A DNA stretch of 64,000 nt from Candidatus Daviesbacteria bacterium (GCA_016186955.1 JACPKP010000009.1:24463-88462), one strand, 5' to 3'; counted from the stretch's first letter, positions 17,237 through 46,406 are shown. Numbers and translations are program-made. The notes: generated by a model from the sequence alone, not told the origin.

Positions 17237-18946
17237 TTGATGGGCAAACGGCATTCTTATGAAAAAGGGATAGTGCATCTGCTACCACTGGTTCTGATTG
17301 CTGCGGTTGGTGTTATCTCTTTTTTGTTAATATCTTCAACAGCGCCGTTTAAAGGCAACCTATTTGACAAACTTTTCCCTAAGCACCGTCCCAAGGCGGC
17401 TATAGCAGATTGTTCTGCAACGGCAGTAGGGACTGCCTGTCTTTATTTATCGCCAAAGAGTAAGACAGTAGCCCCTTCTACTGCTTTTGCGGTTCAGATC
17501 AGGGTTAACTCAAATGGAGTCAATGCTAATGCTGCGGAAACAGTAATAACATATCCGACTAATATTTTTAAAGTTGACAACATAGATTATACAGGCAGCG
17601 ATTTTGACGTTAAGGCGCAGGAGACAAATACCCCCGGATTGATTGATTTAGTTAGGGGGTCTACTGTGCCACAACAGGGGGATAAGTTAATTGCTACTGT
17701 AAATTTCAGCTCGCTTACCACAGAAGCCTCCTCGGTTGTAGATTTTGATACTAACTCGTCTGTATACTCCGGGGCAACCAATATACTACAAAATACTCTC
17801 GGGGGGGTTTATGCCGTAAAAGTAAACTTTGCAGCCGGCCAGGCAAGTTTTCTATTGAGCGCCCCTTCAACAACATATTCTGTCGGGCAACCGGTTTCAG
17901 CCAGTCTAAGCGTTAGGGCCGATACCGATGAAGCTAATCTGTTTTCTGCTAAGATCCATTTTGATAATACGAAATTGCAGGTTGTAGGAATTGATACAAC
18001 AGGCACATTTGTACAAAATTGGGTTGATAATTTTTCTGATAATTCCACAGGTGAGATTTCTCTGGTGGGGGGAGTGCCAACCCCTGGTTACAAAACTGCC
18101 GGTGCAGACAGCCTGATGGCAAAAGTCAATTTTAATACCATTGGAGCCGGCGCTGCTGCGGTAGACTTTGAGGCAACTTCGGCGATATACCGTAATTCCG
18201 ACAACACAAATATGTTAAACACAACACAAAACTTGTTGATAACTATTAACCCGGGTGCGACCCCAACACCGACTCCAACTCCGACGCCTACACCTACGCC
18301 CACGCCAACTCCTCCCCCAACTGCAACACCTACTCCAACAGCTTCACCTACCCCAACCCCAACGCCCATAGCTTGTTCTATAAGCAGTGCAAGTTGGGAT
18401 TTTATAGATCCCAGTAATACAGCAGTTATCGAAAGTGCAGTAGTTGGGTTGAAAATAAATGGGACAGGCGATTGCAACGGGCAAAGCGTACAAACCAAAG
18501 TGAAACAGGCAGGTTTATTTGTCAATGAAGCGGTCAACACCCAACCGTCTGCCGCCACATTCAACGGGAACACTGCGGTAACTTCATGGTTGAGTGAATA
18601 CCATCCTGACGGTCCTTTTGGGATTGGATTATTTGATCCGCCTGATTACTATTTCACAGCTAAATTGGCTGGCGGTACTAATGAATTTTCATCAAGTGAC
18701 CCCAAACTGCAGGTTAGACAGGCTGGTGCACCTAATTTTAGAAAGGGTGATGCTAACCATGATGACGTAGTAGATTTCCAGGACCTTTCAGTACTGCACA
18801 CCCATTGGCTTGATAATAAAGCCACCAATCCGGAACAGTGGATTACAGAATTGGATGTAAACGATGATAATGACCTAAATACCATAGATTTCTCCGGTAT
18901 AATATTGGTGCTTTGCGGGAATGGTTTAGTGAAAGCCTGCAATTAG
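17237..18946 (+). CDS. Secreted/anchored protein with two cohesin-like domains, a Pro-Thr linker and a C-terminal dockerin-like domain
   Basis: N-terminal leader with TM helix. Cohesin-like repeats are similar to ORF 25478. The PTPTPTPT linker runs 18244-18355. The C-terminal Ca-binding repeats are GDANHDDVVDFQDLSVL and DVNDDNDLNTIDFSGIIL. Confidence 0.6.
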   Translation: MMGKRHSYEKGIVHLLPLVLIAAVGVISFLLISSTAPFKGNLFDKLFPKHRPKAAIADCSATAVGTACLYLSPKSKTVAPSTAFAVQIRVNSNGVNANAAETVITYPTNIFKVDNIDYTGSDFDVKAQETNTPGLIDLVRGSTVPQQGDKLIATVNFSSLTTEASSVVDFDTNSSVYSGATNILQNTLGGVYAVKVNFAAGQASFLLSAPSTTYSVGQPVSASLSVRADTDEANLFSAKIHFDNTKLQVVGIDTTGTFVQNWVDNFSDNSTGEISLVGGVPTPGYKTAGADSLMAKVNFNTIGAGAAAVDFEATSAIYRNSDNTNMLNTTQNLLITINPGATPTPTPTPTPTPTPTPTPPPTATPTPTASPTPTPTPIACSISSASWDFIDPSNTAVIESAVVGLKINGTGDCNGQSVQTKVKQAGLFVNEAVNTQPSAATFNGNTAVTSWLSEYHPDGPFGIGLFDPPDYYFTAKLAGGTNEFSSSDPKLQVRQAGAPNFRKGDANHDDVVDFQDLSVLHTHWLDNKATNPEQWITELDVNDDNDLNTIDFSGIILVLCGNGLVKACN

Positions 18947-18957
18947 ATAAATAGGTC

Positions 18958-20511
18958 ATGAAAAATTTTGATCAAAAGGCTTTTATCCATGCCCCGTTGT
19001 TGCTTCTTCTGGCCGCCTTTGGGTTAATCACTTTTCTTTTATTTACCTTTAACTCATCTTTTAAAAATGGCCTGTTTTCTTATCTTTTCCCAAAACCACC
19101 CTCCCATGCTGCTACTGCTGTAGATGTAACTTCCCAACTTGAAAATTTAGGTAATCCCTTCACTGCGAAACCCACCTATGCCAGGAATGTTTGGGATATG
19201 CAAAACTTTAATGGAAAAATCTATTTAGGGCATGGGGATTTTAATAGCAATGCCGGGCCGATTGATGTTTTCTATTATGATCCAAGCTCCTCAACCTTCT
19301 TGAAACAAGCTACTTCAGGCAATAGTTGTGGTTCAACATGTGTGGATGAGGAGCAGCTTGGGATATATCACATTTTTAACAATACCCTTTATACTCCTGG
19401 GATTGACCCAAGAGGATCAGTTCCTGCCGGCAATTTCTACCGCATAGAAAATGGTTCTTTAACCAAGCACAATACCATTTCTCCTTTAAATCTTCACACT
19501 TATGATATTTATAAATTTGGAACTGCTCTTTTTGCTGCAGGTTATGGCACCAACACTTCCCAAGGATTAGCAATTTCTACTAATGATGGTGTCAGCTGGA
19601 CAGCGCCCGCTTATGGCAATGAAAACACTACTGATGGTGGTTCCTCCACCTATAAAGGCGGCGCTAATAACTTTTTTGAGATTGGAGGAAAATTATATGT
19701 CGCAGGTACCTTTTACAGACAAGGCCAGGATACCAGTGGCAACTGGTGGCAACACTTTATAAATATTGCCCGTTTCGACGGAGGGAATCTTTTTACCATA
19801 GTTAACTGGGACGCTGCTAAGGCCATGTTTCCTGGCTTTCAGGGCACTTCAGTTGTGGCTGGAACACCTTCGCTTACTATTACCGGCAACTTAATCCTTA
19901 CAAGATGGGTAAATTTCAATAACCAACTTGTCTATATTGGCGAGGATAGCGGTGTGCCAAAAGCCTTATTTAAAGCTGCCACTTTTGGTACAGGCCAGGT
20001 TATCACTTTGCCTGATAACGCCCTGCCCAGGGATATTTTAGTTTCAGGAGGAACTGTCTATGTTTTAGCGTCAACTGGATCAGGCTCCACTTATACTAAC
20101 TATGTTTTTTCTTCAACTGATTTAAATACCTGGGATGAGGTTTTGCATTTTGGTTCAGATACTTTTGCCAGATCTTTTGAGATGTTAAATGGGGACTTTT
20201 ACTTTGGCCTAGGGACTGACTCAACTACCTCCCCTTCTCCCTCAACAGGTAATATTTTAAGGGTAAAACAAGCTGCTTATCAACCGCCACCTTCACCTTC
20301 TGCACCTATCTCAGAGCCAATTACCCCTTCGCCAACCCCTACCCCAGGCCCCAAGCAAGGGGATATCAATGGGGATAACAAGGTGGATATAATTGACTTA
20401 TCAGTACTTTTGTCTAACTGGCTTGGCACAGATACCAGCTCTGATATAAACAAGGATGGCAAGGTTGGTATTATTGATCTATCAATACTTCTATCCAACT
20501 GGCTAAAGTAA
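18958..20511 (+). CDS. Secreted protein with a C-terminal dockerin (two DINGDNKVDIIDLSVL / DINKDGKVGIIDLSIL repeats)
   Basis: Conserved N-terminal leader. The body may be a beta-propeller or lectin-like domain. Dockerin type I-like repeats at the C-terminus. Confidence 0.6.
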   Translation: MKNFDQKAFIHAPLLLLLAAFGLITFLLFTFNSSFKNGLFSYLFPKPPSHAATAVDVTSQLENLGNPFTAKPTYARNVWDMQNFNGKIYLGHGDFNSNAGPIDVFYYDPSSSTFLKQATSGNSCGSTCVDEEQLGIYHIFNNTLYTPGIDPRGSVPAGNFYRIENGSLTKHNTISPLNLHTYDIYKFGTALFAAGYGTNTSQGLAISTNDGVSWTAPAYGNENTTDGGSSTYKGGANNFFEIGGKLYVAGTFYRQGQDTSGNWWQHFINIARFDGGNLFTIVNWDAAKAMFPGFQGTSVVAGTPSLTITGNLILTRWVNFNNQLVYIGEDSGVPKALFKAATFGTGQVITLPDNALPRDILVSGGTVYVLASTGSGSTYTNYVFSSTDLNTWDEVLHFGSDTFARSFEMLNGDFYFGLGTDSTTSPSPSTGNILRVKQAAYQPPPSPSAPISEPITPSPTPTPGPKQGDINGDNKVDIIDLSVLLSNWLGTDTSSDINKDGKVGIIDLSILLSNWLK

Positions 20512-20523
20512 TATACTGGTTAT

Positions 20524-21084
20524 ATGCCCAGGAATTTAAACTCCAAAGGGATAATACACCTTAGCATACCAATACTACTTGCTATAGTTGGTGTGATAGT
20601 TTTTTTGCTGTTTTCATCAAGCGCATCTTTTAAAAACAAACTATTTTCCTCGCTTTTCCCTAAATTACCTGGTTTTGCAGCAACAGGTGCAATTTCCAAT
20701 ATTACAGACAATAGTGCTTCTTATCCCAATGGACAAATTCCAAAGTATGAAAAATATGAAGTTACCTTTGATGTGGCGACCAATGCTTCCAACCCCCAGC
20801 TGCCTTATGATCCTGCCCCTCCACCAGGCATGCAAGCTGGAGTAGGAGTGACAGTTAATGGAGAATTTTCCCAGGATAACTTTACTACCAAAACGGTTAT
20901 TCCTGCTTTTTACTATCAAAATTTTGACTACCAGGTTAAAAGTAACCGGGAATGGTTTTATCCTACCTCCAATTATTCCTGGAAGTTAAGGTTTGCACCG
21001 GATAAAGAAGGAACCTGGCAATACAGAATTACCGCCCAAGATAGCTCCGGAACTTCTACTTCCGGGCCCAAACCTTTACAGTAA
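20524..21084 (+). CDS. N-terminal fragment (leader plus 130 aa) of a dockerin-containing glycoside hydrolase, separated from the rest by a frameshift
   Basis: Has the same leader as the 18958 and 23481 proteins. The reading frame of the downstream ORF opens at 21045, overlapping this ORF's 3' end in a different frame. Confidence 0.5.
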   Translation: MPRNLNSKGIIHLSIPILLAIVGVIVFLLFSSSASFKNKLFSSLFPKLPGFAATGAISNITDNSASYPNGQIPKYEKYEVTFDVATNASNPQLPYDPAPPPGMQAGVGVTVNGEFSQDNFTTKTVIPAFYYQNFDYQVKSNREWFYPTSNYSWKLRFAPDKEGTWQYRITAQDSSGTSTSGPKPLQ

Positions 21085-21185
21085 CCCCAAATTCTACCAA
21101 CCATGGTTTTGTTAAGGTTTCCAAAAAAGACCCCAGGTATTTTGAATATGATGACGGAACTTATTTTCCAGCTCAAGGCTACAAC

Positions 21186-23468
21186 ATGACTTGGGGAGAA
21201 ATTAGCTGGGATAATCCGGTTTTATTCAATCAGGCTAATTTCCAGAAAATGGGCCAAAATGGAGTTCAGCTTATTAGAAACTGGCTATCAGATTGGGGTA
21301 TTTTTGCTTCTGATGACCAGCCTTGGACTGGTGTTTCAGGCAATGCTGCCAACAATCCGGGGGTTAGGGTGCCTTATATTCCTCCCGCAACATCTCCTAC
21401 AGTGGTACCGCCTTTTGGCAGTTCAGATGTCGAGTTTCAGATTCAACATTACTACAATCCATGTAACTTTTATGGAGGGTGGCATGATGGCCAAGGCCCG
21501 GCTGTCAAGACCAACACTAAATACCGTGTTTTTATTAGATACTTAATTCCCCAAGCTTTGCCACAAGCTGTAGATACTACTAAACCGTCTGGTTTGGTAG
21601 CTAAAGTCTCAGGCTGGCTAGATGCACCTTTGACCAATCCAAACAATAACTGTGCCAAGGCTGGTTCAGGAACAGATATAACACCTCATGTAACTCAGGT
21701 ATCCAGCAAAGATGCAAACGGGAATTGGCAATGGCAGATTTTAGAGGGAACAATCGATCCTAGCTTAATTGGTACTAAAAACTTTTTAGGTAGGATTTAT
21801 CTTTCCATGGATAATATAGATCATCTCACCGTTCCTGCTCCAGGTGTAGGTGAAATAATTTGGGTGGATAGGATTGAAATTAGAGAGGATTTGGGTGACA
21901 ACTTATGCGCGGCTGCCTCAGGTTCAGGAGCCCCGTTTGATTTGAGTAATGGGAAATGCGGCACCAACATTATGACTGCTCCCTGGTCTTCCTACAACCA
22001 GTATTACAACCAAAGGTTTTCCTTATCATTTGATAAAGCTTTAGAACTGGCCCACCAAAATAATGTTTATTTGAAACTGGTAATTTTGGAGAAAAATGAA
22101 TATATCCAAAACCATATTGATTATTTAGGCAGAGGTATTTTGGATAACCAGACGGGTTGCCTTCAACCCTATGGGGTAGTAGAGTGTCCAAATAACAATT
22201 GGTTTTATGGTAATTGGCGGAGTGTGACTAAGACCAGATGGCTTCAGCAAGCCTACTGGAGATATCTTCAGGCCAGGTGGGGTTATTCAACTAATGTTCA
22301 CTCCTGGGAACTTATTAATGAAGGAGATCCATTTAGTGGTTTGCACTACACCTTGGCAGATGAGCTGGGAAAATATATGCATCAATTTGGGCCAAATGCC
22401 CATTTAGTTACCACCTCTAATTGGAACAGTTTTCCGGAAGGGACAAACCAACTTTGGGGCAACCCAAGTTTCCCAAACTTGGATTATACAGATGTTCATC
22501 ATTATATGATTAAAGGCCAAAATGGTTCTGTTAGGACTGATAAGAAATTTATGGGAGATAGCGTTACAGCCTTTCTGGCTCCGGATTGGTTTGACTCAGC
22601 TTCAGCGGTCAACAGAGTAAGCCAGGTCTTAAGCCCTCTTGGTATATATGGTGTTGGTAAACCCATTATGAGAGGAGAAACCGGCTTTGTGACTGGTAAT
22701 AGTGATGGCTGGAACAATGAAATTCAAAACGATACTAGTGGAGTTTGGCTTCATAAGTTTGTTTGGGCGGGGATTAATTCAGGGGGACTGATAGAAAGCT
22801 ATTGGTATAGCAAGCAACATATCAACCCATCGCCGACTAAGGATTTTACGCCGGAATTTGGCAAATATTACAACTTTATTAAAGATATCCCTTTAAGTAA
22901 TGGTAATTATCGGGAAGCCTCTGCTTCTGCCTCAGATACTAATTTGAGGGCTTGGGGGCAGAAAGACACAGTTAATAAAAGGGCGCATCTTTGGATAGAT
23001 AATAAAACCCATACCTGGGGTAATGTAGTTTATGCTACTCCATCTGCAACCATTGCTTCTGGAACTACGATAACTCTGCCTAATATGCCACAAGGCTCAT
23101 ACCCTATTTCCTGGATAGATACTTATGCTTCTCCCTCTGCCGCTTTAGTTAAAACAGAAACAGTTAACGTAGATGCATCTGGTAATTTAGTTTTATCCCT
23201 CCCTCAAGCTTTAACTAAAGATGTAGCTGTAAAAATTGGGGATTACTTTTCTCCGGCTCCTAACCCCTCTCTCAGCCCTTCTCCTATACCAACCCCTACC
23301 CCAGGTTCCAAGCAGGGAGATATCAATGGGGATAACAAGGTGGATATAATTGACTTATCAGTACTACTGTCCCATTGGCTTGGCACAGATACCAGCTCTG
23401 ATATAAACAAGGATGGCAAGGTTGGTATTATTGATCTATCAATACTTCTATCCAACTGGCTAAAGTAA
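21186..23468 (+). CDS. Glycoside hydrolase, clan GH-A (GH5/GH26-like), with a C-terminal dockerin; frame open from 21045
   Basis: WELINEGDP (acid/base NEP-like) and IMRGETGFV (nucleophile GE.G) motifs. C-terminal dockerin repeats identical to those of the 18958 protein. Confidence 0.6.
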   Translation: MTWGEISWDNPVLFNQANFQKMGQNGVQLIRNWLSDWGIFASDDQPWTGVSGNAANNPGVRVPYIPPATSPTVVPPFGSSDVEFQIQHYYNPCNFYGGWHDGQGPAVKTNTKYRVFIRYLIPQALPQAVDTTKPSGLVAKVSGWLDAPLTNPNNNCAKAGSGTDITPHVTQVSSKDANGNWQWQILEGTIDPSLIGTKNFLGRIYLSMDNIDHLTVPAPGVGEIIWVDRIEIREDLGDNLCAAASGSGAPFDLSNGKCGTNIMTAPWSSYNQYYNQRFSLSFDKALELAHQNNVYLKLVILEKNEYIQNHIDYLGRGILDNQTGCLQPYGVVECPNNNWFYGNWRSVTKTRWLQQAYWRYLQARWGYSTNVHSWELINEGDPFSGLHYTLADELGKYMHQFGPNAHLVTTSNWNSFPEGTNQLWGNPSFPNLDYTDVHHYMIKGQNGSVRTDKKFMGDSVTAFLAPDWFDSASAVNRVSQVLSPLGIYGVGKPIMRGETGFVTGNSDGWNNEIQNDTSGVWLHKFVWAGINSGGLIESYWYSKQHINPSPTKDFTPEFGKYYNFIKDIPLSNGNYREASASASDTNLRAWGQKDTVNKRAHLWIDNKTHTWGNVVYATPSATIASGTTITLPNMPQGSYPISWIDTYASPSAALVKTETVNVDASGNLVLSLPQALTKDVAVKIGDYFSPAPNPSLSPSPIPTPTPGSKQGDINGDNKVDIIDLSVLLSHWLGTDTSSDINKDGKVGIIDLSILLSNWLK

Positions 23469-23480
23469 TATACTGGTTAT

Positions 23481-25475
23481 ATGCCCAGAAATTTAAACTC
23501 CAGAGGGATAGCCCATCCAGCCATACTTATTTTCCTGGCTGTTGTGGGGATTCTTTTATTTTTGTTTATCACCTCAAGCGCATCTTTTAAAAACAATCTA
23601 TTCTCCTACCTCTTTCCTAAACCTAAATCTCAGGCTGCTACCACAAACCCCTGGGTCTCAGCTTACTATTTAGGTTATTTCTGGGACTGGATTTCAGACC
23701 CCACCCAAGCTGTTAATGCTGTGGATATGTCCACCATGACCCATCTGATCTTTGCCAGGTATGCCCCTGGATCAGGGTCAATGGGTGGAAGCGCAGGGCA
23801 GTTAATGAATGGTGCAGGTACAGGACATACAGCAGTTGAGGACCCTTTAATTGCCAAAGCCCACTCAAACAATGTCAAGGCTATCTTGATGATTGGCGGG
23901 GTGGGTGACGGAGGAGGCTTTGTGGCATCAACAGCCAATCCCACAATCCGGGCCACCTTTATCAGTAACATCTTAAATAAAGCTGTTGCAAAAAACTATG
24001 ATGGGGTGGATATTGACTGGGAAGACAGTCTTGATAATACAACCCAGCAAAACCAGCTGATTGCATTTCTAACAGAGCTAAGAACTGCTGCCAACAGTAG
24101 GCCCAGATACCAAACCCCTAACCAGCCGTTTATTATTACCTTTCCGGGGTTCTGGGCTAATTCTAATTTTGATACAGTCCAACCTGCCTGGAAAGTAACT
24201 GTGGCTAATTTAGTTGATCAATACAACTTAATGAGTTATGACATGATGTGGTGTTGTGATGGTTGGCAAACCTGGTTTTGGGCAGCGTTAAAAGGAGAAG
24301 CGCCTACTCATCCTACATCTTTAGAACATTCCATTCAAACGTATGTCAACGCCGGAGTTCCAAGAAGCAAATTAGGAATAGGTATAGGGTTATATGGCGG
24401 AGGCTGGAGAGCACCAGTGAATGGCCCAAGACAGGATCCTGGTACTGCTCAGGATTGGGGTGGAGATGATACCAATGATACTTATGCAGAGTTTTATAAA
24501 ACAGGAATGTTTGACCCTGCCTCTTTTTATTGGGATAGTGCTGCTCAGGTTGGGTATTATTCCTATAACCCGCCCAAAAGCTATCATGGCAATACTGTTT
24601 CATACCTTACTACTGAAGATGATCGGACAATTGCATCACAAGGAGCCTGGGTGAGGGCAGGTAATGCCGCAGGAACTATAGTTTGGGGTATTAATTATGG
24701 TGATGTTACCCCAACCAGTAATCCTGCTATGCAGGCTATTAAGCAGGCTTTCTTAAACCCAAATGCGACCCCAATTCCTACTCCCACAACCGGTCCAACT
24801 CCGCCTCCGCTTCCTTCGCCTACTCCTACCCCAACACCTACACCACTACCGTCAGGGATAATTAACATAGGTGAGACTAATATTTTAACTATTCCTGACA
24901 ACGGCAACGCTAATCTTTTAATTGCCCAACAAACTACGCTAGCCCAAACTGCCACAATACAATCTTTGTCCTTCTATGTTACTAATGCAGCAGGCAATCT
25001 GCGTTTGGGAATCTATGATGCTACAGGACCTGGAGGAGGGCCTGGTGCTAAAAAAGCTGAATCAAATTCATTTACCCCTATTGTTGGCTGGAACACTGCG
25101 AATGTAATATCTCCGGCATTACTTCCAGCGGGGACATATTGGCTGGCATATTTACCCAGTGATGGTAATTTAACTTTTGTCAAAGACTATCCAGGAGCTG
25201 CTGCATACTATTCATATAACTTTGGAGTTATGCCAACAACTTTCTCCACTGCTCCCAATACTGAAGGAGTCCACTGGTCACTCTATGCCACTTTTAACAG
25301 CGCTACTGTGCCTACTTTGCCAGGTGATTTAAATGGAGATAACAAGGTGGATATAATTGACTTATCAGTACTGCTGTCCCATTGGCTTGGCACAGATGCC
25401 GGCTCTGATATAAGCAAAGACGGTAAAGTTAATATTGTAGACTTGTCAATACTTCTATCTAACTGGCTGAAATAA
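23481..25475 (+). CDS. Glycoside hydrolase family 18-like (chitinase-like) protein with a PT linker, a beta-sandwich domain and a C-terminal dockerin
   Basis: YDGVDIDWE fits the GH18 DxxDxDxE catalytic motif. Has the N-terminal leader and C-terminal dockerin repeats. Confidence 0.65.
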   Translation: MPRNLNSRGIAHPAILIFLAVVGILLFLFITSSASFKNNLFSYLFPKPKSQAATTNPWVSAYYLGYFWDWISDPTQAVNAVDMSTMTHLIFARYAPGSGSMGGSAGQLMNGAGTGHTAVEDPLIAKAHSNNVKAILMIGGVGDGGGFVASTANPTIRATFISNILNKAVAKNYDGVDIDWEDSLDNTTQQNQLIAFLTELRTAANSRPRYQTPNQPFIITFPGFWANSNFDTVQPAWKVTVANLVDQYNLMSYDMMWCCDGWQTWFWAALKGEAPTHPTSLEHSIQTYVNAGVPRSKLGIGIGLYGGGWRAPVNGPRQDPGTAQDWGGDDTNDTYAEFYKTGMFDPASFYWDSAAQVGYYSYNPPKSYHGNTVSYLTTEDDRTIASQGAWVRAGNAAGTIVWGINYGDVTPTSNPAMQAIKQAFLNPNATPIPTPTTGPTPPPLPSPTPTPTPTPLPSGIINIGETNILTIPDNGNANLLIAQQTTLAQTATIQSLSFYVTNAAGNLRLGIYDATGPGGGPGAKKAESNSFTPIVGWNTANVISPALLPAGTYWLAYLPSDGNLTFVKDYPGAAAYYSYNFGVMPTTFSTAPNTEGVHWSLYATFNSATVPTLPGDLNGDNKVDIIDLSVLLSHWLGTDAGSDISKDGKVNIVDLSILLSNWLK

Positions 25476-34312: not shown

Positions 34313-34317
34313 AAGTT

Positions 34318-34345
34318 AGCTTCTAGGTTCTAGCTTCTAGGTTCT
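34318..34345. repeat. Tandem direct repeat 2 x 14 bp (AGCTTCTAGGTTCT) in the gltX promoter region
   Basis: Two perfect adjacent copies. Each supplies a TTCTAG -35-like hexamer, 17 nt upstream of TATTAT (34351-56). Confidence 0.5.
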
Positions 34346-34368
34346 AATTATATTATACTTCAATCATC

Positions 34369-35709
34369 ATGGAAGTTAGAGTCAGAATTGCCCCATCACC
34401 CACCGGATCGCCCCATATCGGCACTGCCTGGCAAGCGCTGTTTGATTATGTGTTTGCTAAAAAACATAACGGGAAATTTATCCTGCGGCTTGAGGATACT
34501 GACCGCGCCAGGTTTGTGCCGGAATCGGTAGACCAAATACATGAAACGTTGGAGTGGTTGGGTTTTGAATATGATGAGGGCCCGGGTAAAGGCGGAAATT
34601 TTGGCCCGTATATCCAATCCGAAAGGCGGGAGATTTATAAAAAGTATACAGACAAGTTGATTGGAAAAGATTTGGCATATGAAAGCGATGGGGCAATCCG
34701 GTTTAAGATGAATAAGGAGGGTAAAACAACCTATCACGATTTGGTAGGGGATAAAGATATTACAATCGAAAATTCCACCCAGGATGATTTTGTAATTTTA
34801 AAATCAGACGGTTTTCCCACCTATAACTTCGCAAATGTAATTGACGACCATTTAATGCAAATTTCGCATGTTATCCGCGGCAATGAGTATATTTCTTCAA
34901 TGCCAAAATATTTACAGCTTTATAAAGCGTTTGATTGGACGCCTCCCCAGTTTGCCCACCTGCCGCTTTTGGTTGGGTCGGACCGGTCTAAACTTTCCAA
35001 ACGGCATGGTGCAAAATCCGCCCTGGATTATAAAAAGGAAGGATATTTAAAACAGGCGGTTATTAACTTCCTCGCGCTTTTGGGCTGGTCGAACCCTGAA
35101 GGGAAGGAGATTTTTTCTTTGGAGGAGATGATAAAGGTTTTTGATTTGAAAGATTTTAACCAGGCTTCGGTTTATTTTGATCCCCAAAAATTGGAATGGA
35201 TGAACGGTGAATATATCAGGATGATGTCTGATGAGGATTTGGCCCAAAACTTACGTGAATACCTAGTTGATCATCCGGCAAAGGATAAAATTGGGGAAGT
35301 TGTGCCGCTTGTAAAGGAAAGGATTAAAAAACTTGCCGATTTTATTCCCCTTACAAACTTCCTCTGGCAAAAACCGGAATATGACCGGGCTGTTTTTGAG
35401 AAATTAAAAATTGATGGGGATATCCAAAAAGTGTTGGATAGGATAATAGAGAAGATGCAAAGTATGGGGAAACCATGGAAAGCGGAAGAGTTTGAAAAAA
35501 CTTTTAGGGAATTGGCAGGGGAATTAAAAATTTCTGCCGGTGATATGTTTCAATTGATCAGGGCAGCCATTTCCGGGCAGCTGGTTACTCCGCCGCTTTT
35601 TGAAAGTATACAGATTTTAGGTGAGGATGAAACCTTAAGAAGGGTTGAATATGTTGCCAGGTCTTACCAGGATCTGCCAAAGCTCGTAGAGAGGATAGAA
35701 TCTGAATGA
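34369..35709 (+). CDS. gltX: Glutamate--tRNA ligase
   Basis: PSPTGSPHIGTA (HIGH) and KLSKRHG (KMSKS) motifs. Confidence 0.9.
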   Translation: MEVRVRIAPSPTGSPHIGTAWQALFDYVFAKKHNGKFILRLEDTDRARFVPESVDQIHETLEWLGFEYDEGPGKGGNFGPYIQSERREIYKKYTDKLIGKDLAYESDGAIRFKMNKEGKTTYHDLVGDKDITIENSTQDDFVILKSDGFPTYNFANVIDDHLMQISHVIRGNEYISSMPKYLQLYKAFDWTPPQFAHLPLLVGSDRSKLSKRHGAKSALDYKKEGYLKQAVINFLALLGWSNPEGKEIFSLEEMIKVFDLKDFNQASVYFDPQKLEWMNGEYIRMMSDEDLAQNLREYLVDHPAKDKIGEVVPLVKERIKKLADFIPLTNFLWQKPEYDRAVFEKLKIDGDIQKVLDRIIEKMQSMGKPWKAEEFEKTFRELAGELKISAGDMFQLIRAAISGQLVTPPLFESIQILGEDETLRRVEYVARSYQDLPKLVERIESE

Positions 35710-35897: not shown

Positions 35898-36875
35898 TTG
35901 GTATATAATACCTCCAGAATGAATCCTAAAGAGCTATACCAGAGCGCGTCAGCAAGTTTTTGGCAAGGACGGGGTGACGGCGGCAGCTTTGACAGGTATT
36001 TCAAAAATGTTAAATGCATTGATATCCGGAAAGAATCGCCTCCTCCTCAAAGTTTTTCCATAGCCGGTTTTAAATGCGATGAGGGTGTCAGAAGGAATTT
36101 GGGACGGCCCGGGGCTTTTAAAGGCCCGGACCGGATCAGGCATTTTTTGGCGACGCTTGCCTATCATATTGATCCCCGCCGACAGATCTATGACCTGGGG
36201 GATGTTACCTGCACTGATGGAGAGTTGGAACGCTCCCAACTTGAGTTGTCATCTCTTGTCGCGGCAGCTTCCTCAAAAGGCTCATTTACTACGGTTTTCG
36301 GAGGAGGTCACGAATTGGCATGGGGGCAGTACCAGGGCCTTGCACAAAATTTTAAAGAGATCGGGGTTGTCAATATCGACGCCCATTTTGACCTGCGGCC
36401 TCTTGAAAACGGCAAGGGGACATCTGGCACATCCTTCAGGCAAATTGCTGATTACTGCAGAGAAAACAACCTGCCATTTGACTACCTTTGTATAGGCATC
36501 CAGCCTGAAGGGAACACACCCTATCTTTTTTCCGAAGCGGAGAGACTCGGCACAAAATATATTCTTGCGGAAGATGCATATGCCCTCTCCAGTGCGGAAG
36601 AATTTATTTCGGGCCAAAAATCCATTTACCTGACTATCTGTCTTGACGTTTACGCGCAAAACTTTGCCCCGGGCGTAAGCGCACCGTCCCCCTTCGGCTT
36701 GACTCCTGCCCAGGTTAATAGATATCTGAAGATGCTTGCAAAGTCTAGAAAAGTCATTGGGTTTGGCATTGCCGAACTGGCGCCCAAATTTGACAAAGAT
36801 AATATAACAGCCCGCCTTGCCGCACTTTCAACAGCCTATTTTTTAAGGAATTACAAATTTTATGGAAGTTTTTGA
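35898..36875 (+). CDS. hutG: Formimidoylglutamase (arginase/ureohydrolase family)
   Basis: GGGHELAWG, IDAHFDLRP and LDVYAQ ureohydrolase motifs. It sits in the operon with hutI, hutH and hutU. Confidence 0.65.
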   Translation: MVYNTSRMNPKELYQSASASFWQGRGDGGSFDRYFKNVKCIDIRKESPPPQSFSIAGFKCDEGVRRNLGRPGAFKGPDRIRHFLATLAYHIDPRRQIYDLGDVTCTDGELERSQLELSSLVAAASSKGSFTTVFGGGHELAWGQYQGLAQNFKEIGVVNIDAHFDLRPLENGKGTSGTSFRQIADYCRENNLPFDYLCIGIQPEGNTPYLFSEAERLGTKYILAEDAYALSSAEEFISGQKSIYLTICLDVYAQNFAPGVSAPSPFGLTPAQVNRYLKMLAKSRKVIGFGIAELAPKFDKDNITARLAALSTAYFLRNYKFYGSF

Positions 36876-38082
36876 TGAGCTTTGGCTGGATGTAAATATT
36901 GCAACCATGTCAGGAGAAAATTATGGTGTCATACCAGCAGGCGCTATCGGTATTTCGGGGGAAAAAATTTCATGGGTTGGCAGACAAAAAGATTTAGGGA
37001 AAAAGGCTTTAAACTCAGTCAAAAAGATCCACCGGGGCAATAATTTTTGGGTAACGCCGGGACTTATTGAATGCCATACGCATTTGGTATACGGGGGAAA
37101 CAGGGTTTGTGAATTTGAGATGCGCCAGAAAGGTGTAAGTTATGCCCAGATCTCCAAAATGGGCGGAGGGATTAATGCAACAGTTCAATCCACCAGGGGT
37201 ACAAGTGAAGATGGGCTTTTCCTTAGCGCCAGGGAAAGGTTGTCCGGATTTCTTAAAGAAGGAGTAACCACCATAGAGATAAAATCAGGTTACGGGTTGG
37301 ATATGCAGACAGAGCTGAAAATGCTCAGGGTGGCTACACGTCTTCAGAGGCAGTCTTATGCAACAATCCAAAGGACATATCTTGGCGCACATGCAGTCCC
37401 TCCTGAATATAAAGGCAGGGCAGATGAATACATAGATTTTTTATGTAATGAAGTTTTGCCGGAGATAAAAAAAGAAGAATTGGCTGATACGGTTGATGCA
37501 TTTTGCGAAAACATCGCATTCAATACTGACCAGGTGGAGAGGCTTTTTTTAAAAGCCAAAAAATTAGGCTACCCTGTTAAACTTCATGCGGAACAGTTAA
37601 GCGACCAAAAAGGGGCAATCCTTGCTGCAAAGTATCAAGCGCTCTCTGTTGACCATCTGGAATATCTGCAAGAGGATGGGATAAAAGCGATCGCAAAATC
37701 AGGCACCATTGCAGTCCTGCTTCCGGGGGCTTCTTACTACCTGAACGAAACCAAAAAACCGCCTTTGGAGTTGCTCAAAAATTACAAAGTCCCTGTAGCA
37801 ATATCCACAGATTTAAACCCCGGTACCTCACCCATTAATTCACTGCTTGCGGTTATGAACATGGCCTGTGTTTTATGGAAGTTTACTCCGGTAGATGCGC
37901 TTTTGGGTGTTACCGCCAACAGCGCCAAAGCATTGGGGTTGGGATCTGCGGTTGGAACAATCGAGACAGGGAAAAAAGCCGATTTTGTGGTTTGGGATAT
38001 CAGCCAACCCGCAGAGCTCTCTTACGGCATCGGTCTCAGTCCCCATAAAATTGTAGTAAAAAACGGGAAAATTATTCAGTGA
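36862..38082 (+). CDS. hutI: Imidazolonepropionase
   Basis: IECHTHLVYGGNR amidohydrolase signature typical of HutI. Confidence 0.85.
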   Translation: MEVFDELWLDVNIATMSGENYGVIPAGAIGISGEKISWVGRQKDLGKKALNSVKKIHRGNNFWVTPGLIECHTHLVYGGNRVCEFEMRQKGVSYAQISKMGGGINATVQSTRGTSEDGLFLSARERLSGFLKEGVTTIEIKSGYGLDMQTELKMLRVATRLQRQSYATIQRTYLGAHAVPPEYKGRADEYIDFLCNEVLPEIKKEELADTVDAFCENIAFNTDQVERLFLKAKKLGYPVKLHAEQLSDQKGAILAAKYQALSVDHLEYLQEDGIKAIAKSGTIAVLLPGASYYLNETKKPPLELLKNYKVPVAISTDLNPGTSPINSLLAVMNMACVLWKFTPVDALLGVTANSAKALGLGSAVGTIETGKKADFVVWDISQPAELSYGIGLSPHKIVVKNGKIIQ

Positions 38083-39566
38083 ATATCTCCAACAGACAGC
38101 TTAGTTACCGGGAAATTTATGAAAGCATAAAAAGGGAGGAGAAGATATCGGTTAACCCCAAAATATTAAAACGGCTAGGGAAGCAAAGAGAAAAAATAAA
38201 AAAAATACTGAATCAAAAAGGCGCTGTCTATGGCATTAACACCGGGTTTGGCGCATTAAAAACCAAAAGCATCAACCCTGAAGACATCCTAACCCTTCAG
38301 GAAAACCTGATCCGCTCACATGCTGCAGGAGTAGGCAACCCATTCCCCCAAAATATTGTCAAGGCGGTCATGATTTTGATAATTAATAACCTGTCAAAGG
38401 GATATTCCGGGGTCCGTCCGGTGATAATTGAAACTCTCATACAGATGGTCAATAAAGGAGTAATCCCGGTTGTGCCGGAAAAAGGGTCGGTCGGTTCAAG
38501 TGGCGACCTCAACCCCTCTGCGCATATTGTGCTTGTCGCCATGGGGGAGGGTGAGGCGTATTTTAATGGTGTCAGGATTTCCGGATACGAGGCGATGAAG
38601 CAAGCAGGTATCCCCTCTGTAAAAATTGAAGCGAAAGAGGGTTTGGCCTTAATTAACAATACTGCAACTATGACAGCCAATGCCATTTTCGCGCTTTCCG
38701 ATGCCTGTTATCTTGCAGACATCGCTGATTTTTCAGGTGCGCTTTGTGCAGAGGCGCTGCGCGCAACACATGCAGCTTTTGACAGCAGGGTGCATCGGAT
38801 AAAACCTTCCAAAGGCCAGCTGCTGGTTGCCCAAAGGTTAAGGAAGCTTCTTTTAGGCAGCGCTATGCAGGATAAAACCCGGATCCAGGACCAATATTCA
38901 ATCAGGTGTATGCCGCAGATCCATGGGGCTGTCAGGGATGCCATGGAATATGTCAGGCATGTTGTCAATATTGAAGTCAACTCTGTAACAGACAACCCGT
39001 TGATATTTTCCAAAGGCCAGGAAATTGAAATTATCTCCTGCGGCAACTTTCATGGGGAGGCAATGTCCCTGGCGATGGATACGCTGCGGATAGCTGTTTG
39101 TGAACTGGCAAATATCGCCGACAGAAGGATATGTTCGATCCTGGACTCAAACCACAGCTATGGTTTACCTGCCTTTCTGGCAAAAAACCCCGGGTTAAAT
39201 TCCGGGCTGATGATCCTGCAGTATACAACTGCGGCCCTGGTTTCTGAAAATAAGATACTCGCCCATCCGGCTGTAGTGGACTCCATTCCTACATCAGCCA
39301 ACATTGAAGATATAGTATCGATGGGTACAATTTCTGCCAGGAAAACACTTGAGGTAGTGGAGAATGTTAAATATGTCCTGGCGGTAGAGCTTTTATCAGC
39401 CTGCCAGGCAGTGGACTTCCGGCTCAAAGAGGGTTATAATCTGGCTCAAGGCACACTAAAGGTTTATAATAAAATCAGAAAAATAGTACCTTTTTTTGAC
39501 AATGACCAGGAATATACACCTTTTATAAATAAAATAGTTAATTTAATAGATAACAGGGGATTATAG
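38079..39566 (+). CDS. hutH: Histidine ammonia-lyase
   Basis: Aromatic amino-acid lyase fold. The MIO region is GSVGSSGDLNPSAHI, with SSG where ASG is usual. Confidence 0.85.
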   Translation: MNISNRQLSYREIYESIKREEKISVNPKILKRLGKQREKIKKILNQKGAVYGINTGFGALKTKSINPEDILTLQENLIRSHAAGVGNPFPQNIVKAVMILIINNLSKGYSGVRPVIIETLIQMVNKGVIPVVPEKGSVGSSGDLNPSAHIVLVAMGEGEAYFNGVRISGYEAMKQAGIPSVKIEAKEGLALINNTATMTANAIFALSDACYLADIADFSGALCAEALRATHAAFDSRVHRIKPSKGQLLVAQRLRKLLLGSAMQDKTRIQDQYSIRCMPQIHGAVRDAMEYVRHVVNIEVNSVTDNPLIFSKGQEIEIISCGNFHGEAMSLAMDTLRIAVCELANIADRRICSILDSNHSYGLPAFLAKNPGLNSGLMILQYTTAALVSENKILAHPAVVDSIPTSANIEDIVSMGTISARKTLEVVENVKYVLAVELLSACQAVDFRLKEGYNLAQGTLKVYNKIRKIVPFFDNDQEYTPFINKIVNLIDNRGL

Positions 39567-41573
39567 ATGGAAAAAGAAATTTCTGAATTCCAAAAAAAGA
39601 TCCTTGAGGGTATCCCGGATCAACTGCCCCGCAAAAAACCATATGATAAAAATATCAGCCACGCACCAAAACGCAAAGATATTTTATCAAACACAGAAAA
39701 AATCCTGGCTGTCAAAAATGCCCTCAGATATTTTCCCAAAAAACATCACAAAATTTTAGCCGAGGAATTTGTCGGAGAACTGAAAGATTATGGCCGGATT
39801 TATATGTACAGATTTAAGCCTGACTATAAAATTTCAGCAAGAAACATCAATGAATTTCCCCACCGGTCAAAATCTGCAGCAGCCATAATGCTGATGATCA
39901 GCAATAACTTGGATAAGGCGGTTGCGCAGCATCCGGATGAGTTGATCACTTATGGAGGAAATGGGGCAGCTTTCCAAAACTGGGCCCAATATCTTTTGAC
40001 TATGCAATATCTGGCTAAGATGGGTGAAGACCAGACTTTAATTTTGTATTCAGGCCATCCCTTGGGTCTATTCCCTTCCGGTAAAGACGCCCCCCGGTTA
40101 GTAATCACAAACGGGATGATGGTGCCCAACTATTCCAAACCCGATGATTGGGAGAGGTTTAACGCTTTGGGAGTGACCCAATATGGACAGATGACGGCAG
40201 GATCATTTATGTATATCGGGCCGCAAGGGATAGTACATGGAACGACAATCACGGTTTTGAATGCCGGCAGAAGAATGGGTCTGGAGAATTTATCAGGCAG
40301 GGTTTTTGTTTCCTCGGGTTTGGGGGGGATGTCAGGGGCTCAGGCTAAAGCAGCTGTTATAGCAGGTGCGGTTGGTGTAATTGCGGAGGTTAATCCAAAA
40401 GCTGTTGAAAAGAGGTATTCCCAAGGATGGGTAGATGAAGTTTATACAGGTCTGGATCAACTAATATACAGAATTTCTAAAGCCAGGGAGGGACGGGAAG
40501 CAGTTTCTCTGGCCTATTCAGGCAATATTGTTGACCTTTGGGAAAAGTTTGTTGCGGATGACGTTAAGGTTGAACTTGGATCAGACCAAACCTCACTCCA
40601 TAACCCTTTTGCAGGCGGGTATTATCCGCAGGGTCTAACTTTGCAGGAATCAAACAAATTAATGGTGGAAGAGCCTTTAAAGTTCAAACATGAGGTGTAT
40701 AAATCGCTCAGGAGGCAGGTTGCTGCTATTGATAAGATGACTTCAAAAGGGATGTATTTTTGGGATTACGGAAACGCTTTTTTACTCGAAGCAGGCAGGG
40801 CAGGCGCGGACATATTAAAAGGCGACGGTTCTTTCAAATACCCTTCGTACGTGCAGGATATCATGGGGCCTTTATATTTTGACTTTGGATTCGGGCCTTT
40901 CAGGTGGGTTTGTACCTCATCTGACCCGGATGATCTGGCTAAAACAGATGAAATTGCCGGCGGGGTTTTGGAAAAAATTTTAACAAACGCCCCGGAGGAG
41001 ATTAAAAAACAGCTTGAAGACAATATTAAATGGATTAAAACAGCCGGATCAAACAGCTTGGTGGTCGGCTCACAGGCTAGGATCCTTTATGCTGATGCAG
41101 AAGGCAGGGTTAAGATAGCTTTGGCATTCAATAAAGCGGTCAGGGAGGGTAAGATTTCTGCGCCAATTGTGGTAGGAAGGGACCACCATGATGTTTCAGG
41201 CGCGGATTCACCATACCGGGAAACCTCCAATATTTATGACGGTTCAAAATTTACCGCGGATATGGCTGTGCAAAATGTGATCGGGGATTCATTCCGCGGC
41301 GCTACCTGGGTGTCTATCCATAATGGGGGAGGTGTGGGTTGGGGTGAGGTGATCAACGGAGGTTTTGGGCTGGTCATTGACGGTTCTAAAGACTCAGGAC
41401 ATAAAATAAAATCAATGCTTTTTTGGGATGTGGCAAACGGTTTGGCCAGGAGGTCCTGGGCCAGAAACGAAGGGGCGCTTTTTACAGCCAAAAAAATAAT
41501 GGAAGAGAAGTCAAAACTTAAAATAACCCTGCCTAATTTAGTTGATGAGGATACCCTGAGGAAATTGTTTTAA
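39567..41573 (+). CDS. hutU: Urocanate hydratase (long, 668-aa form)
   Basis: The YGGNGAAFQNWAQY and HNGGGVGWG urocanase motifs are spread along the protein. Confidence 0.85.
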   Translation: MEKEISEFQKKILEGIPDQLPRKKPYDKNISHAPKRKDILSNTEKILAVKNALRYFPKKHHKILAEEFVGELKDYGRIYMYRFKPDYKISARNINEFPHRSKSAAAIMLMISNNLDKAVAQHPDELITYGGNGAAFQNWAQYLLTMQYLAKMGEDQTLILYSGHPLGLFPSGKDAPRLVITNGMMVPNYSKPDDWERFNALGVTQYGQMTAGSFMYIGPQGIVHGTTITVLNAGRRMGLENLSGRVFVSSGLGGMSGAQAKAAVIAGAVGVIAEVNPKAVEKRYSQGWVDEVYTGLDQLIYRISKAREGREAVSLAYSGNIVDLWEKFVADDVKVELGSDQTSLHNPFAGGYYPQGLTLQESNKLMVEEPLKFKHEVYKSLRRQVAAIDKMTSKGMYFWDYGNAFLLEAGRAGADILKGDGSFKYPSYVQDIMGPLYFDFGFGPFRWVCTSSDPDDLAKTDEIAGGVLEKILTNAPEEIKKQLEDNIKWIKTAGSNSLVVGSQARILYADAEGRVKIALAFNKAVREGKISAPIVVGRDHHDVSGADSPYRETSNIYDGSKFTADMAVQNVIGDSFRGATWVSIHNGGGVGWGEVINGGFGLVIDGSKDSGHKIKSMLFWDVANGLARRSWARNEGALFTAKKIMEEKSKLKITLPNLVDEDTLRKLF

Positions 41574-41724: not shown

Positions 41725-41795
41725 TGCGGGATGGTGTAACGGTAGCACAGCGGACTCTGAATCCGTTAATCTAGGTTCAAATCCTAGTCCCGCAG
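41725..41795 (+). tRNA. tRNA-Gln (anticodon CTG)
   Basis: Cloverleaf: acceptor TGCGGGA/TCCCGCA with U1:A72, D arm GTG/CAC, anticodon arm GCGGA-CTCTGAA-TCCGT, T arm CTAGG-TTCAAAT-CCTAG, discriminator G. No CCA is encoded. Confidence 0.8.
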
Positions 41796-41881
41796 CACGA
41801 GCATAGCGAGTGCTAAGGGACGGTGTGTTGTCCCGCAGCACGAGCATAGCGAGTGCTAAGGGACGGTGTGTTGTCCCGCAG
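41796..41881 (+). repeat. Two perfect 43-bp tandem direct repeats, each ending with a copy of the tRNA-Gln 3' end (GTCCCGCAG)
   Basis: CACGAGCATAGCGAGTGCTAAGGGACGGTGTGTTGTCCCGCAG occurs twice, starting immediately after the tRNA discriminator. Confidence 0.7.
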
Positions 41882-41895
41882 CTAAGCACAACAGA

Positions 41896-41940
41896 GAGGG
41901 TGGGAAGCCTTGCCTGTCGGCAGGCAGGTAATCCACCCTC
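41896..41940 (+). terminator. Long hairpin GAGGGTGG...CCACCCTC followed by an A/T-rich tail; possible terminator or structured RNA
   Basis: 8-bp outer stem with an inner CCTTGCCTG/CAGGCAGG near-stem, followed by CAAGTGTACAAATATTTTT. Confidence 0.4.
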
Positions 41941-42043
41941 CAAGTGTACAAATATTTTTGGATACAAATGGAAGATGGGAGATGGTTTATTTTCCATAGT
42001 ATAACTTGACAGCTTACTAAAGAAGACTATAATCTTAGATATA

Positions 42044-42244
42044 ATGAAAAAAATAGCTAGAATGTCTAATAAAGATTTAGTCCCAGGATCTAAAGTTCCG
42101 ATTGCTTTTTTGATTGACTACATCAAAGAAGGCTACAGCATCAAAGATTTTTTGAGTAATTATCCTTGGGTTAAGAAAAAATCTGTCCAAAAAGCACTGG
42201 CCGAGGTAAAAAAAAGAGATTTTACCTCCCAGTATGCCATCTAA
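42044..42244 (+). CDS. DUF433 domain protein (antitoxin-like partner of DUF5615)
   Basis: VPGSKVPIAFLIDYIKEGYSIKDFLSNYP matches the DUF433 core. Confidence 0.65.
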   Translation: MKKIARMSNKDLVPGSKVPIAFLIDYIKEGYSIKDFLSNYPWVKKKSVQKALAEVKKRDFTSQYAI

Positions 42245-42362
42245 ATCAAAACTTCAATTTTATGCAGACGAATGCTTTCCTATAGCTTCAGTCAAATTTC
42301 TTAAATCAATTTGGAGATACTTGTTTTTGAAATCAAAAAGCATTAGCATGAAGCAACTATGA
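42234..42362 (+). pseudogene. Truncated DUF5615 (PIN-like) remnant, 42 codons, overlapping the DUF433 stop
   Basis: Translation gives MPSKSKLQFYADECFPIASVKFLKSIWRYLFLKSKSISMKQL. FYADECFP..V..L matches the DUF5615 N-terminus (kFLADENLP..lv..Lr). Full-length members are about 110 aa. Confidence 0.4.
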
Positions 42363-45235: not shown

Positions 45236-46406
45236 ATGGTTAAAACCGTAATGATAGTTGCCAAAAAGTTAATATATGGCGGTACTGAAAAGTACACACT
45301 CAACCTGGCTAATTTTCTGGCTAAAAAAGGGATAAACGTCATAGTTATAACAAGCGGAGGTCCGCTGGTTGAGCATTTTTCTGAGAAAGTAAAAGTTTTT
45401 ATAATCCCTGCCCTAATAATCCCTAGGTTCAAGGAAATTGTAGAAAGGAAGATCTTGCATATCGCCAAGGAGTACAAACCACAAATCATGCACGTATACA
45501 GCACAGGGCAATATTAGAAAGTGTTCAGCTGACCCGCAAATCCCTTAAAATTCCGGTTATCAGCCATGAACATCATATGTACCAGGCAGCAGATTACCGC
45601 GGAGTAGTCAAGCTTTTGAGAAAAGGAGCTGACAAAATAATTGCGATAGGCCCGTATACCCGTAAAAGGCTGATACAATATGGTTTGGATGAATACAAAA
45701 TTACGCCGGTGCTCAACGGTGTGGACGTAAATGAATACTTGCCTATTACCAAAAACGAAAGGAAGGTATCCAGGGAGCTTTTGGGGTTTAAAAAAATGAT
45801 AAGGTTATTTTATATATTTCCCGTGTTGTGCCGGGTAAGTCGGTCGATAAGTTAGCTCAAGCTTTCACTTCTGTTTTAGCAAAAATTCCAAATGCCAAAC
45901 TGGTTATTGTAGGGGACGATGATGAAAAAAATTTAATTATGTCATATTTAAAAAGATTTATCAGGAGGCATAAACTTCAGGAAAAATTGTTGCTTTTTCA
46001 GGGGCAGTTTGAAATACGCAAATTCCATGCTGTCGCAGATGTTTTTTGTTACCCTGCTATTGGAAAAGGTTTGTCCGTTATGGAGGCTATGGCTGTAGAG
46101 GTGCCCATTGTCGCCAAAGGTACAGATAAAAAGCCCTTTGTGGTTGAGGATAAAATCAGCGGGCTATTGACGAAAGATTCATCTGAACTTTCGGCAGAAG
46201 AGAATCAATTAGCGGATAAGTTAATTTACCTGCTGGAAAGACCCAGGGTCGCCAAAAGAATGGGCAAGGCAGGCAGGATTAGAATTATCAAAAAGTTCGA
46301 TTTTAAAAAAAACATCTTTGGGGTTTTGAAGGTTTACCATAAGACAATAAAACATTATTATAAAAGGCCGAAGGATTTATATAATTATCCCTCCGCCACT
46401 TTTTAA
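45236..46406 (+). pseudogene. GT4 (GT-B) glycosyltransferase disrupted into three ORFs by two frameshifts
   Basis: ORF 45236 carries the Glyco_trans_4 N-terminal domain. ORF 45828 carries the Glycos_transf_1 C-terminal domain (NDKVILYISRVVPGKSVDKL... and GLSVMEAMAVEVPIVA). The second shift falls in the A7 run at about 45790-45797 (GFKK|NDKVILY). The first is near 45495-45515. Confidence 0.65.

Follow-up and report, generated by a model that had tools for sequence, protein, structure and literature searches.

In the genome of the uncultured Candidatus Daviesbacteria bacterium (CPR/Microgenomates) the tRNA-Gln(CTG) gene is followed directly by two perfect head-to-tail copies of a 43-nt unit, each of which ends in the 3' end of the tRNA. 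The array is probably the product of a tandem duplication that took place locally and very recently in the 3' trailer of this functional gene. The window analysed is a stretch of 64,000 nucleotides, and all positions are counted from its first letter. The tRNA gene and the features that follow it are:

41725–41795, + strand: tRNA-Gln(CTG) gene (ARAGORN; Rfam RF00005, 67.5 bits)
41796–41838, + strand: trailer unit 1 of 43 nt, CACGAGCATAGCGAGTGCTAAGGGACGGTGTGTT + GTCCCGCAG (TRF, period 43, 100% identity; direct reading)
41839–41881, + strand: trailer unit 2 of 43 nt, same as unit 1 (TRF; repeat-family search, family D4)
41794–41814, + strand: hairpin AGCAC-GA-GC-ATA-GC-GA-GTGCT, second copy at 41837–41857 (structure scan)
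41817–41834, + strand: short helix GGGAC / GTCCC with loop GGTGTGTT, second copy at 41860–41877 (fold)
41896–41940, + strand: 45-nt G+C-rich compound hairpin after the array (fold, −30.2 kcal/mol, z = −4.5)
42006–42033, + strand: sigma-70-like promoter match TTGACA-16-TATAAT before the DUF433 gene (promoter scan, 12/12; consensus match only)
42044–42244, + strand: DUF433 gene, 66 aa (Pfam PF04255, 29.5 bits against a cut-off of 23.6)
42234–42362, + strand: 42-codon ORF overlapping the DUF433 stop (ORF list)

The span of the tRNA gene is 41725–41796 according to ARAGORN and 41725–41795 according to the Rfam tRNA model (67.5 bits). The tRNA has the pair U1:A72 and the discriminator G73, and its CCA is not encoded. 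Its last 9 nt (41787–41795) are copy 1 of the repeated block, GTCCCGCAG, which is composed of the last T-stem base, the 3' acceptor strand and the discriminator. The array defined by TRF (41787–41882, period 43, 2.2 copies, 100% matches, score 192) thus starts inside the tRNA 3' end, which extends to 41795, and runs on the same strand. Unit 1 begins at the first base past the discriminator and both units close with GTCCCGCAG(C). Since a C follows every copy, including base 41882 after the last one, the repeated block is of 10 nt (GTCCCGCAGC) rather than 9. GTCCCGCAG occurs three times in the 64 kb window, only at 41787, 41830 and 41873, against 0.08 occurrences expected, and a count of 3 was reached in none of 100 shuffles. 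The first-pass annotation had described a tRNA-Gln followed by two perfect 43-bp tandem copies that each end in the tRNA 3' end, and in this ARAGORN, Rfam and TRF agree with it.

Each unit has a folding potential of its own. The stem of the hairpin at 41794–41814 begins within the final two bases of the tRNA, and one complete 43-nt unit folds with −22.3 kcal/mol (z = −3.1), while the short helix at 41817–41834 (−9.1 kcal/mol, z = −1.7) is not significant. Within the spacer, GGGACGGTGT is similar to tRNA positions 4–13 (GGGATGGTGT). An origin of the unit as an internally deleted copy of the tRNA was considered on the basis of this similarity, which reaches only p about 0.07–0.09, and is kept as a possibility. 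The G+C-rich hairpin of 45 nt that had been reported after the array is found at 41896–41940. It has no direct U-tract, a T-run beginning about 17 nt past its stem, and the terminator scan gave 0 intrinsic terminator sites; the hairpin is predicted to be the original end of the tRNA transcript, which it would probably terminate or stabilise. No promoter-like site was detected by promoter scan between tRNA-Gln and the array.

The 100% identity of the two units argues for a very recent local duplication and not for an old decayed scar. The unit is bounded by the 10-nt direct repeat, which is the substrate needed for slippage, and the units are arranged strictly head-to-tail. Before the duplication the order would have been tRNA end, 33 nt, tRNA end and then the hairpin-bearing original trailer; the second identical unit would have been generated by replication slippage or unequal crossing-over at the two 10-bp direct repeats, 43 bp apart. 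We infer this ancestral state in a setting where no relative above 86% GluRS identity has a readable trailer. The sequence past the last copy resembles an original tRNA trailer in having the strong hairpin that would be expected there. Slippage would predict a number of units that differs between strains. It does not account for the origin of the first extra copy, which may be a recombination scar at the tRNA end or may have been left by a partial duplication of the tRNA. A second perfect tandem (TAGCTTCTAGGTTC, 14 nt × 2.1) lies in intergenic DNA at 34317–34346, just upstream of the GluRS gene, and indicates that such duplications occur in this genome.

At the RNA level the array is probably a mere trailer. 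As the CCA is not encoded, it would be added once an RNase Z-type activity has cleaved off the trailer behind G73. In the minimum-energy fold of the whole precursor the 5' acceptor strand pairs with the third copy of the tRNA end, so that some misfolding is conceivable; co-transcriptional folding should favour the native tRNA. The stable hairpin in each unit (z = −3.1) and a GAGCATAGCGA-like loop motif that is somewhat enriched near other tRNA-Gln genes count somewhat against pure neutrality of the duplication.

Trailer duplication of this kind has long been known from the tyrT locus of Escherichia coli. In E. coli K-12 (NC_000913.3) TRF identifies a 178-bp unit in 3.1 copies with 95% identity directly after tyrV, where the last 19 nt of tRNA-Tyr end each unit (tail copies at 1239, 1417, 1595 and 1773). 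The tyrT/tyrV repeats are described as transcribed and processed (PMC3318445; 10.1101/2024.07.17.603846), one repeat unit giving rise to rttR RNA according to PMC3318445, which cites Bosl and Kersten (1991). Judged from its sequence, the array of the window reproduces the architecture of the repeated tyrT/tyrV trailer on a miniature scale. The repeats of both loci lie head-to-tail on the same strand directly after the tRNA, in an array that begins inside the tRNA 3' end, and every unit ends in tRNA 3' bases (19 nt in E. coli, 9–10 nt here). The two differ in unit length (43 bp here and 178 bp in E. coli, with no sequence similarity between the units) and in number and identity of the repeats (2 extra units at 100% here and 3 units at 95% in E. 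coli). Moreover, the tRNA of the window has no encoded CCA, there is no tpr-like ORF, and the array is known from DNA sequence. The direct importance of the finding is small, this being a minor structural variant in a tRNA trailer; it nevertheless indicates that the tyrT-type architecture of trailer repeats ending in tRNA 3' bases also arises in CPR bacteria.

The tRNA-Gln 3' end was compared in a set of related loci. A scan of JGI metagenomes with the last 25 nt of the tRNA gave 29 loci, to which L001, L116, L117, L119, L124, L126, L130 and L133 were added, making about 33 distinct comparable loci. The 43-nt unit is absent from all other tRNA-Gln loci (about 32) and from viral contigs, and thus appears to be young and lineage-specific. 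Presence of the same 43-bp tandem in relatives, which the first-pass annotation had proposed as a sign of ordinary tandem duplication, is therefore not what the comparison revealed. Short-range re-copying of the tRNA 3' end by itself was found in 3 of about 30 related tRNA-Gln loci. L116 (14305–14431) has 16–17 nt of the 3' end re-copied at +109. L092 (896–1050), additional to these three, does not carry a full gene: it has two tRNA-Gln 3' fragments in tandem, the second one, of 12–13 nt, at +100. The spacers of L116 and L092 display no tRNA similarity (p = 0.35–0.45). Partial copies of tRNA-Gln ends at short range are frequent in Microgenomates, and in some loci it is instead the 5' end that is re-copied upstream of the gene: L094 and L104 have the 5' 20 nt of the tRNA about 70 nt upstream, and L106 and L103 have, about 60–130 nt upstream of tRNA-Gln, elements of the size of a tRNA that consist of its 5' end, a hairpin and TCCCGC-T. 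Note that the tRNA-sized elements of L103 and L106 lie, by eye, behind promoter-like −10 boxes.

A given 10-mer is expected to be re-copied within 150 nt about 1.4e-4 times per locus (any 10-mer is repeated within 150 nt about 22 times per 64 kb), and the acceptor 6-mers of 13 other tRNAs from the same loci have no copies within 300 nt. As the copies exceed chance and the other tRNAs are devoid of them, the arrangement "tRNA end, short spacer, tRNA end, unrelated trailer" is a recurrent product in the clade. The array of the window is this recurrent re-copied state with one further identical unit. Like the window, the loci L116, L092, L094, L104, L106 and L103 have a tRNA end fragment re-copied 40–130 nt away on the same strand with hairpin-rich DNA in between; they differ from it by their unrelated spacers, by a single extra copy of 12–20 nt and by the lack of a perfect two-unit tandem.

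Other recurrent sequences were noticed in the trailers of this set. Patchy common blocks (GCAGCCCTTCGAC ... CTCAGGG ... GTCGAAGG ... TGAGTRAGCG) were recognised by eye, and were not reported by blastn-short, in L133 (12407–12522), where they come after the tRNA-Gln end, and in L092 (1046–1130), where the second 3' fragment precedes them. They are capable of forming nested inverted repeats, and in L133 a small GIY-YIG gene follows. A block of about 40 nt, (G)GATT..CTATTTGGGTTGAT..GG.TTGC.AA.C, is present 30–70 nt past tRNA-Gln in the trailers of L105, L126 and L090; L105 and L126 are 85% identical over 39 nt of it (blastn), L090 being added by eye. This block may be an attB-like site or an element conserved among trailers.

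In L087 a large serine recombinase gene (893–2383; Resolvase, Recombinase and Zn_ribbon_recom domains) ends at the tRNA-Gln 3' end. L087 and the loci L107/L112 are 100% identical over 250 nt upstream and through tRNA-Gln, and from the second base past the tRNA they carry two different sequences, which suggests the presence of alternative integrated elements at tRNA-Gln in this population. The tRNA-Gln 3' end is a recombination hot spot in the clade.

Loci of other Daviesbacteria were identified through homologues of GluRS (34369–35709). They have in common the backbone AsnRS, peptidase S11, hypothetical protein, GluRS ... rpiB-rpe-LOG-tkt, in which the GluRS-to-rpiB interval varies from 0.75 kb (L130–132) and 1.4 kb (L124) to 4.3 kb (L117), 6.8 kb (L119), 7.6 kb (L133) and 18.6 kb (window). 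The compact loci L124 and L130–132, which are distant (about 70–75% GluRS identity), have the order GluRS-(hyp)-tRNA-Gln-rpiB with little beyond tRNA-Gln in the interval; other relatives carry different genes there. In the window tRNA-Gln is preceded by a hut operon and separated from rpiB by 12.4 kb. Both are lineage-specific additions, as the compact loci lack them. The downstream stretch codes for PMT_2, a PAS protein, GT4 in three ORFs, a 2136-aa ORF and DUF5663, and the pentose-phosphate block rpiB-rpe-LOG-tktN-tktC starts at 54335. The 2136-aa ORF (46696–53106, − strand) has no Pfam domain and a G+C content of up to 0.49, compared to about 0.34–0.40 in its surroundings.

The hut operon between GluRS and tRNA-Gln (35900–41573) is complete, with an arginase-family gene, hutI, hutH and hutU. 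Among the Daviesbacteria loci examined it is common to L001 only. That locus is colinear with 29.4–41.6 kb of the window (86% GluRS identity) and has a tRNA-Gln(TTG) at the same place, its contig ending 100 nt past this tRNA. The closest homologues of the urocanase are that of L001 (82%) and otherwise those of Bacteroidales at about 75% identity, which is the level found for the housekeeping GluRS between this genome and other Daviesbacteria. On this protein similarity the hut genes look like a horizontal gain by a CPR bacterium from Bacteroidota-like donors. Urocanase was also tried as a route to close relatives and was abandoned, its nearest homologues besides L001 being from Bacteroidales. 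Taken with the related loci, this marks tRNA-Gln in Daviesbacteria as a hot spot where recombination occurs and genes are gained, with the hut operon on one side and 12 kb of accessory genes on the other.

The first-pass annotation had read the repeated tRNA ends as attL/attR-type scars and the DUF433 gene, its truncated partner, PMT_2, PAS, the GT4 pseudogene and the giant gene as a decayed mobile island integrated at tRNA-Gln. This reading is unlikely, even though several of its elements are found. Relatives do use tRNA-Gln as an integration site, as illustrated by the recombinase of L087 and by the alternative junctions after an identical tRNA; in L092 a second fragment, of 13 nt, comes after a partial tRNA-Gln 3' fragment that is genuine; the segment 42.0–54.3 kb is missing from the compact loci L124 and L130–132, as would be expected for an insertion; and this segment contains the GT4 gene, which is split into three ORFs at 45236–46406. 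The copy of a tRNA 3' end downstream of an intact gene is also a feature of tRNA-integrated islands and prophages. In those elements, however, the copies are kilobases apart, while here they follow each other at 43 bp and enclose no genes. A stretch of 96 bp contains all three copies; every candidate island gene lies downstream of it, and only 33-nt spacers are bracketed. No tRNA-end copy other than those at 41787, 41830 and 41873 was found in the window, either exact or with 1–3 mismatches, which extends 22 kb downstream. With all copies on the tRNA side and no distal copy, the repeats are not attL/attR of the downstream DNA. The 100% identity of the units is likewise unlike old scars.

The expected integrase remnant was also not detected. 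No integrase domain was identified by Pfam in the main ORFs of 42–64 kb (n = 16, 42–2136 aa), and tblastn with the L087 recombinase against the window gave only chance matches (E>3). A search for a phage attP in viral contigs gave no match to the tRNA 3' 22-mer or to the central 21-mer of the unit. Among the three features of att-bounded islands that were looked for, absence from relatives was thus found, and bracketing repeats and an adjacent integrase were not. Other relatives fill the interval with metabolic genes (rib genes in L117 and L133, G6PD/6PGD in L119), so that its variability can be understood without a single island. What stands of the proposed island is the recombination hot spot at the tRNA 3' end and the lineage-specific character of the downstream DNA; the repeats as its borders and the integrase do not. 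Island-finding methods that equate every re-copied tRNA 3' end with an att site call for caution in view of this array, whose copies, 43 bp apart, bracket nothing.

The gene next to the array also appears in better condition than first described. DUF433 had been considered decayed, but the protein passes the Pfam cut-off and covers profile positions 14–54 of 56, and therefore looks intact. The 42-codon ORF that overlaps its stop is present as annotated at 42234–42362. It has no Pfam or NCBIfam match even at E<=10, and FYADECFP at its amino terminus resembles that of DUF5615 proteins, of which it is a putative member; the ORF may be a truncated partner gene of DUF433.

It is quite unlikely that the units are functional RNAs, in which the hairpin with tandem G-A pairs and the short acceptor-stem mimic would serve maturation or termination or would be released as a small processed RNA, like rtT. 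The stable fold of one unit (see above) is in agreement with such a role. Loops of the GAGC-N-AGCGA type carried by different stems are found by tRNA-Gln in L115 (+0), L089 (+75), L103/L091 (−90) and L106, where the hairpin is inside the tRNA-sized element (tRNA 5' 17 nt, hairpin and TAGTCCCGC); a similar loop with a different stem is also near tRNA-Gln in L133. When up to 2 edits are allowed, 8 of about 31 other flanks contain the 11-mer GAGCATAGCGA, where 2.7 would be expected, but this enrichment (p = 0.007 before correction for 24 k-mers) is not significant after correction. The 43-nt unit is conserved in no other locus, and two identical units have no covariation signal. With no more than 5 bp (z = −1.7), the acceptor-like helix falls short of the minimal substrates known for RNase P and RNase Z. 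No Rfam family other than tRNAs was matched at gathering threshold or at E<=10 in the window, L116 and six other loci.

Three further lines were followed on the structure of the unit and set aside. Homology to other tRNA-Gln trailers gave L115 as best hit with a score of 18, within the null distribution from shuffles (mean 16, 95% point 20). The arrangement "stem-GA-stem-loop-stem-GA-stem" occurs about 150 times per Mb by chance and is uninformative alone. For a covariance model of the hairpin, the five short sequences were misaligned by MAFFT and the motif is too low in information to be of use in a search. A wider form of the RNA reading would make the unit a member of tRNA-Gln-derived RNA modules of Microgenomates that combine acceptor-stem halves with a GAGC-N-AGCGA hairpin able to form tandem G-A pairs and that are located beside tRNA-Gln genes, the tRNA-sized elements of L103 and L106 among them. 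This is very unlikely; if true, the modules, whose nearest analogue is E. coli rtT RNA, could give rise to small RNAs by co-transcription and processing, or could influence how the tRNA-Gln of the transamidation pathway matures.

That the second unit is an assembly or sequencing artefact, a repeat collapsed or expanded by the assembler, is extremely improbable: assembler errors are common at short tandem repeats, but at 96 nt the array as a whole fits within a typical read, and contigs from three sequencing runs in Logan start at 41853, which needs the 43-nt unit at least twice. These contigs, which break in the repeat, were built with k = 31; two of the runs were mapped directly, and the third, whose sequence is a variant, was placed through its identical start. 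Position 41853 is that of the first 31-mer leaving the repeat, and a restart at this point in a k = 31 de Bruijn graph implies the presence of at least 2 full 43-nt units. The tandem repeat is not a quirk of a single assembler. The Logan contigs that come from hutU (L084–L086) all end at 41776, within the tRNA and before the repeat. Such stops imply a second sequence in the samples that has at least 30 nt of the tRNA body in common and differs nearby; a further copy of tRNA-Gln or a different strain could be its source.

Two other observations were made in the window. Transketolase is encoded by separate amino-terminal and carboxyl-terminal ORFs (56172–58342), with a tRNA-Glu(CTC) gene on the opposite strand between them (57194–57265); the corresponding ORFs of L117, L124 and L130 abut or overlap and have no tRNA between them. 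Three families of direct repeats of 85–300 nt (D1–D3), with 60–96% identity and 1.6–3 kb spacing, are found at 17298–25475 and are probably due to paralogous genes in tandem.
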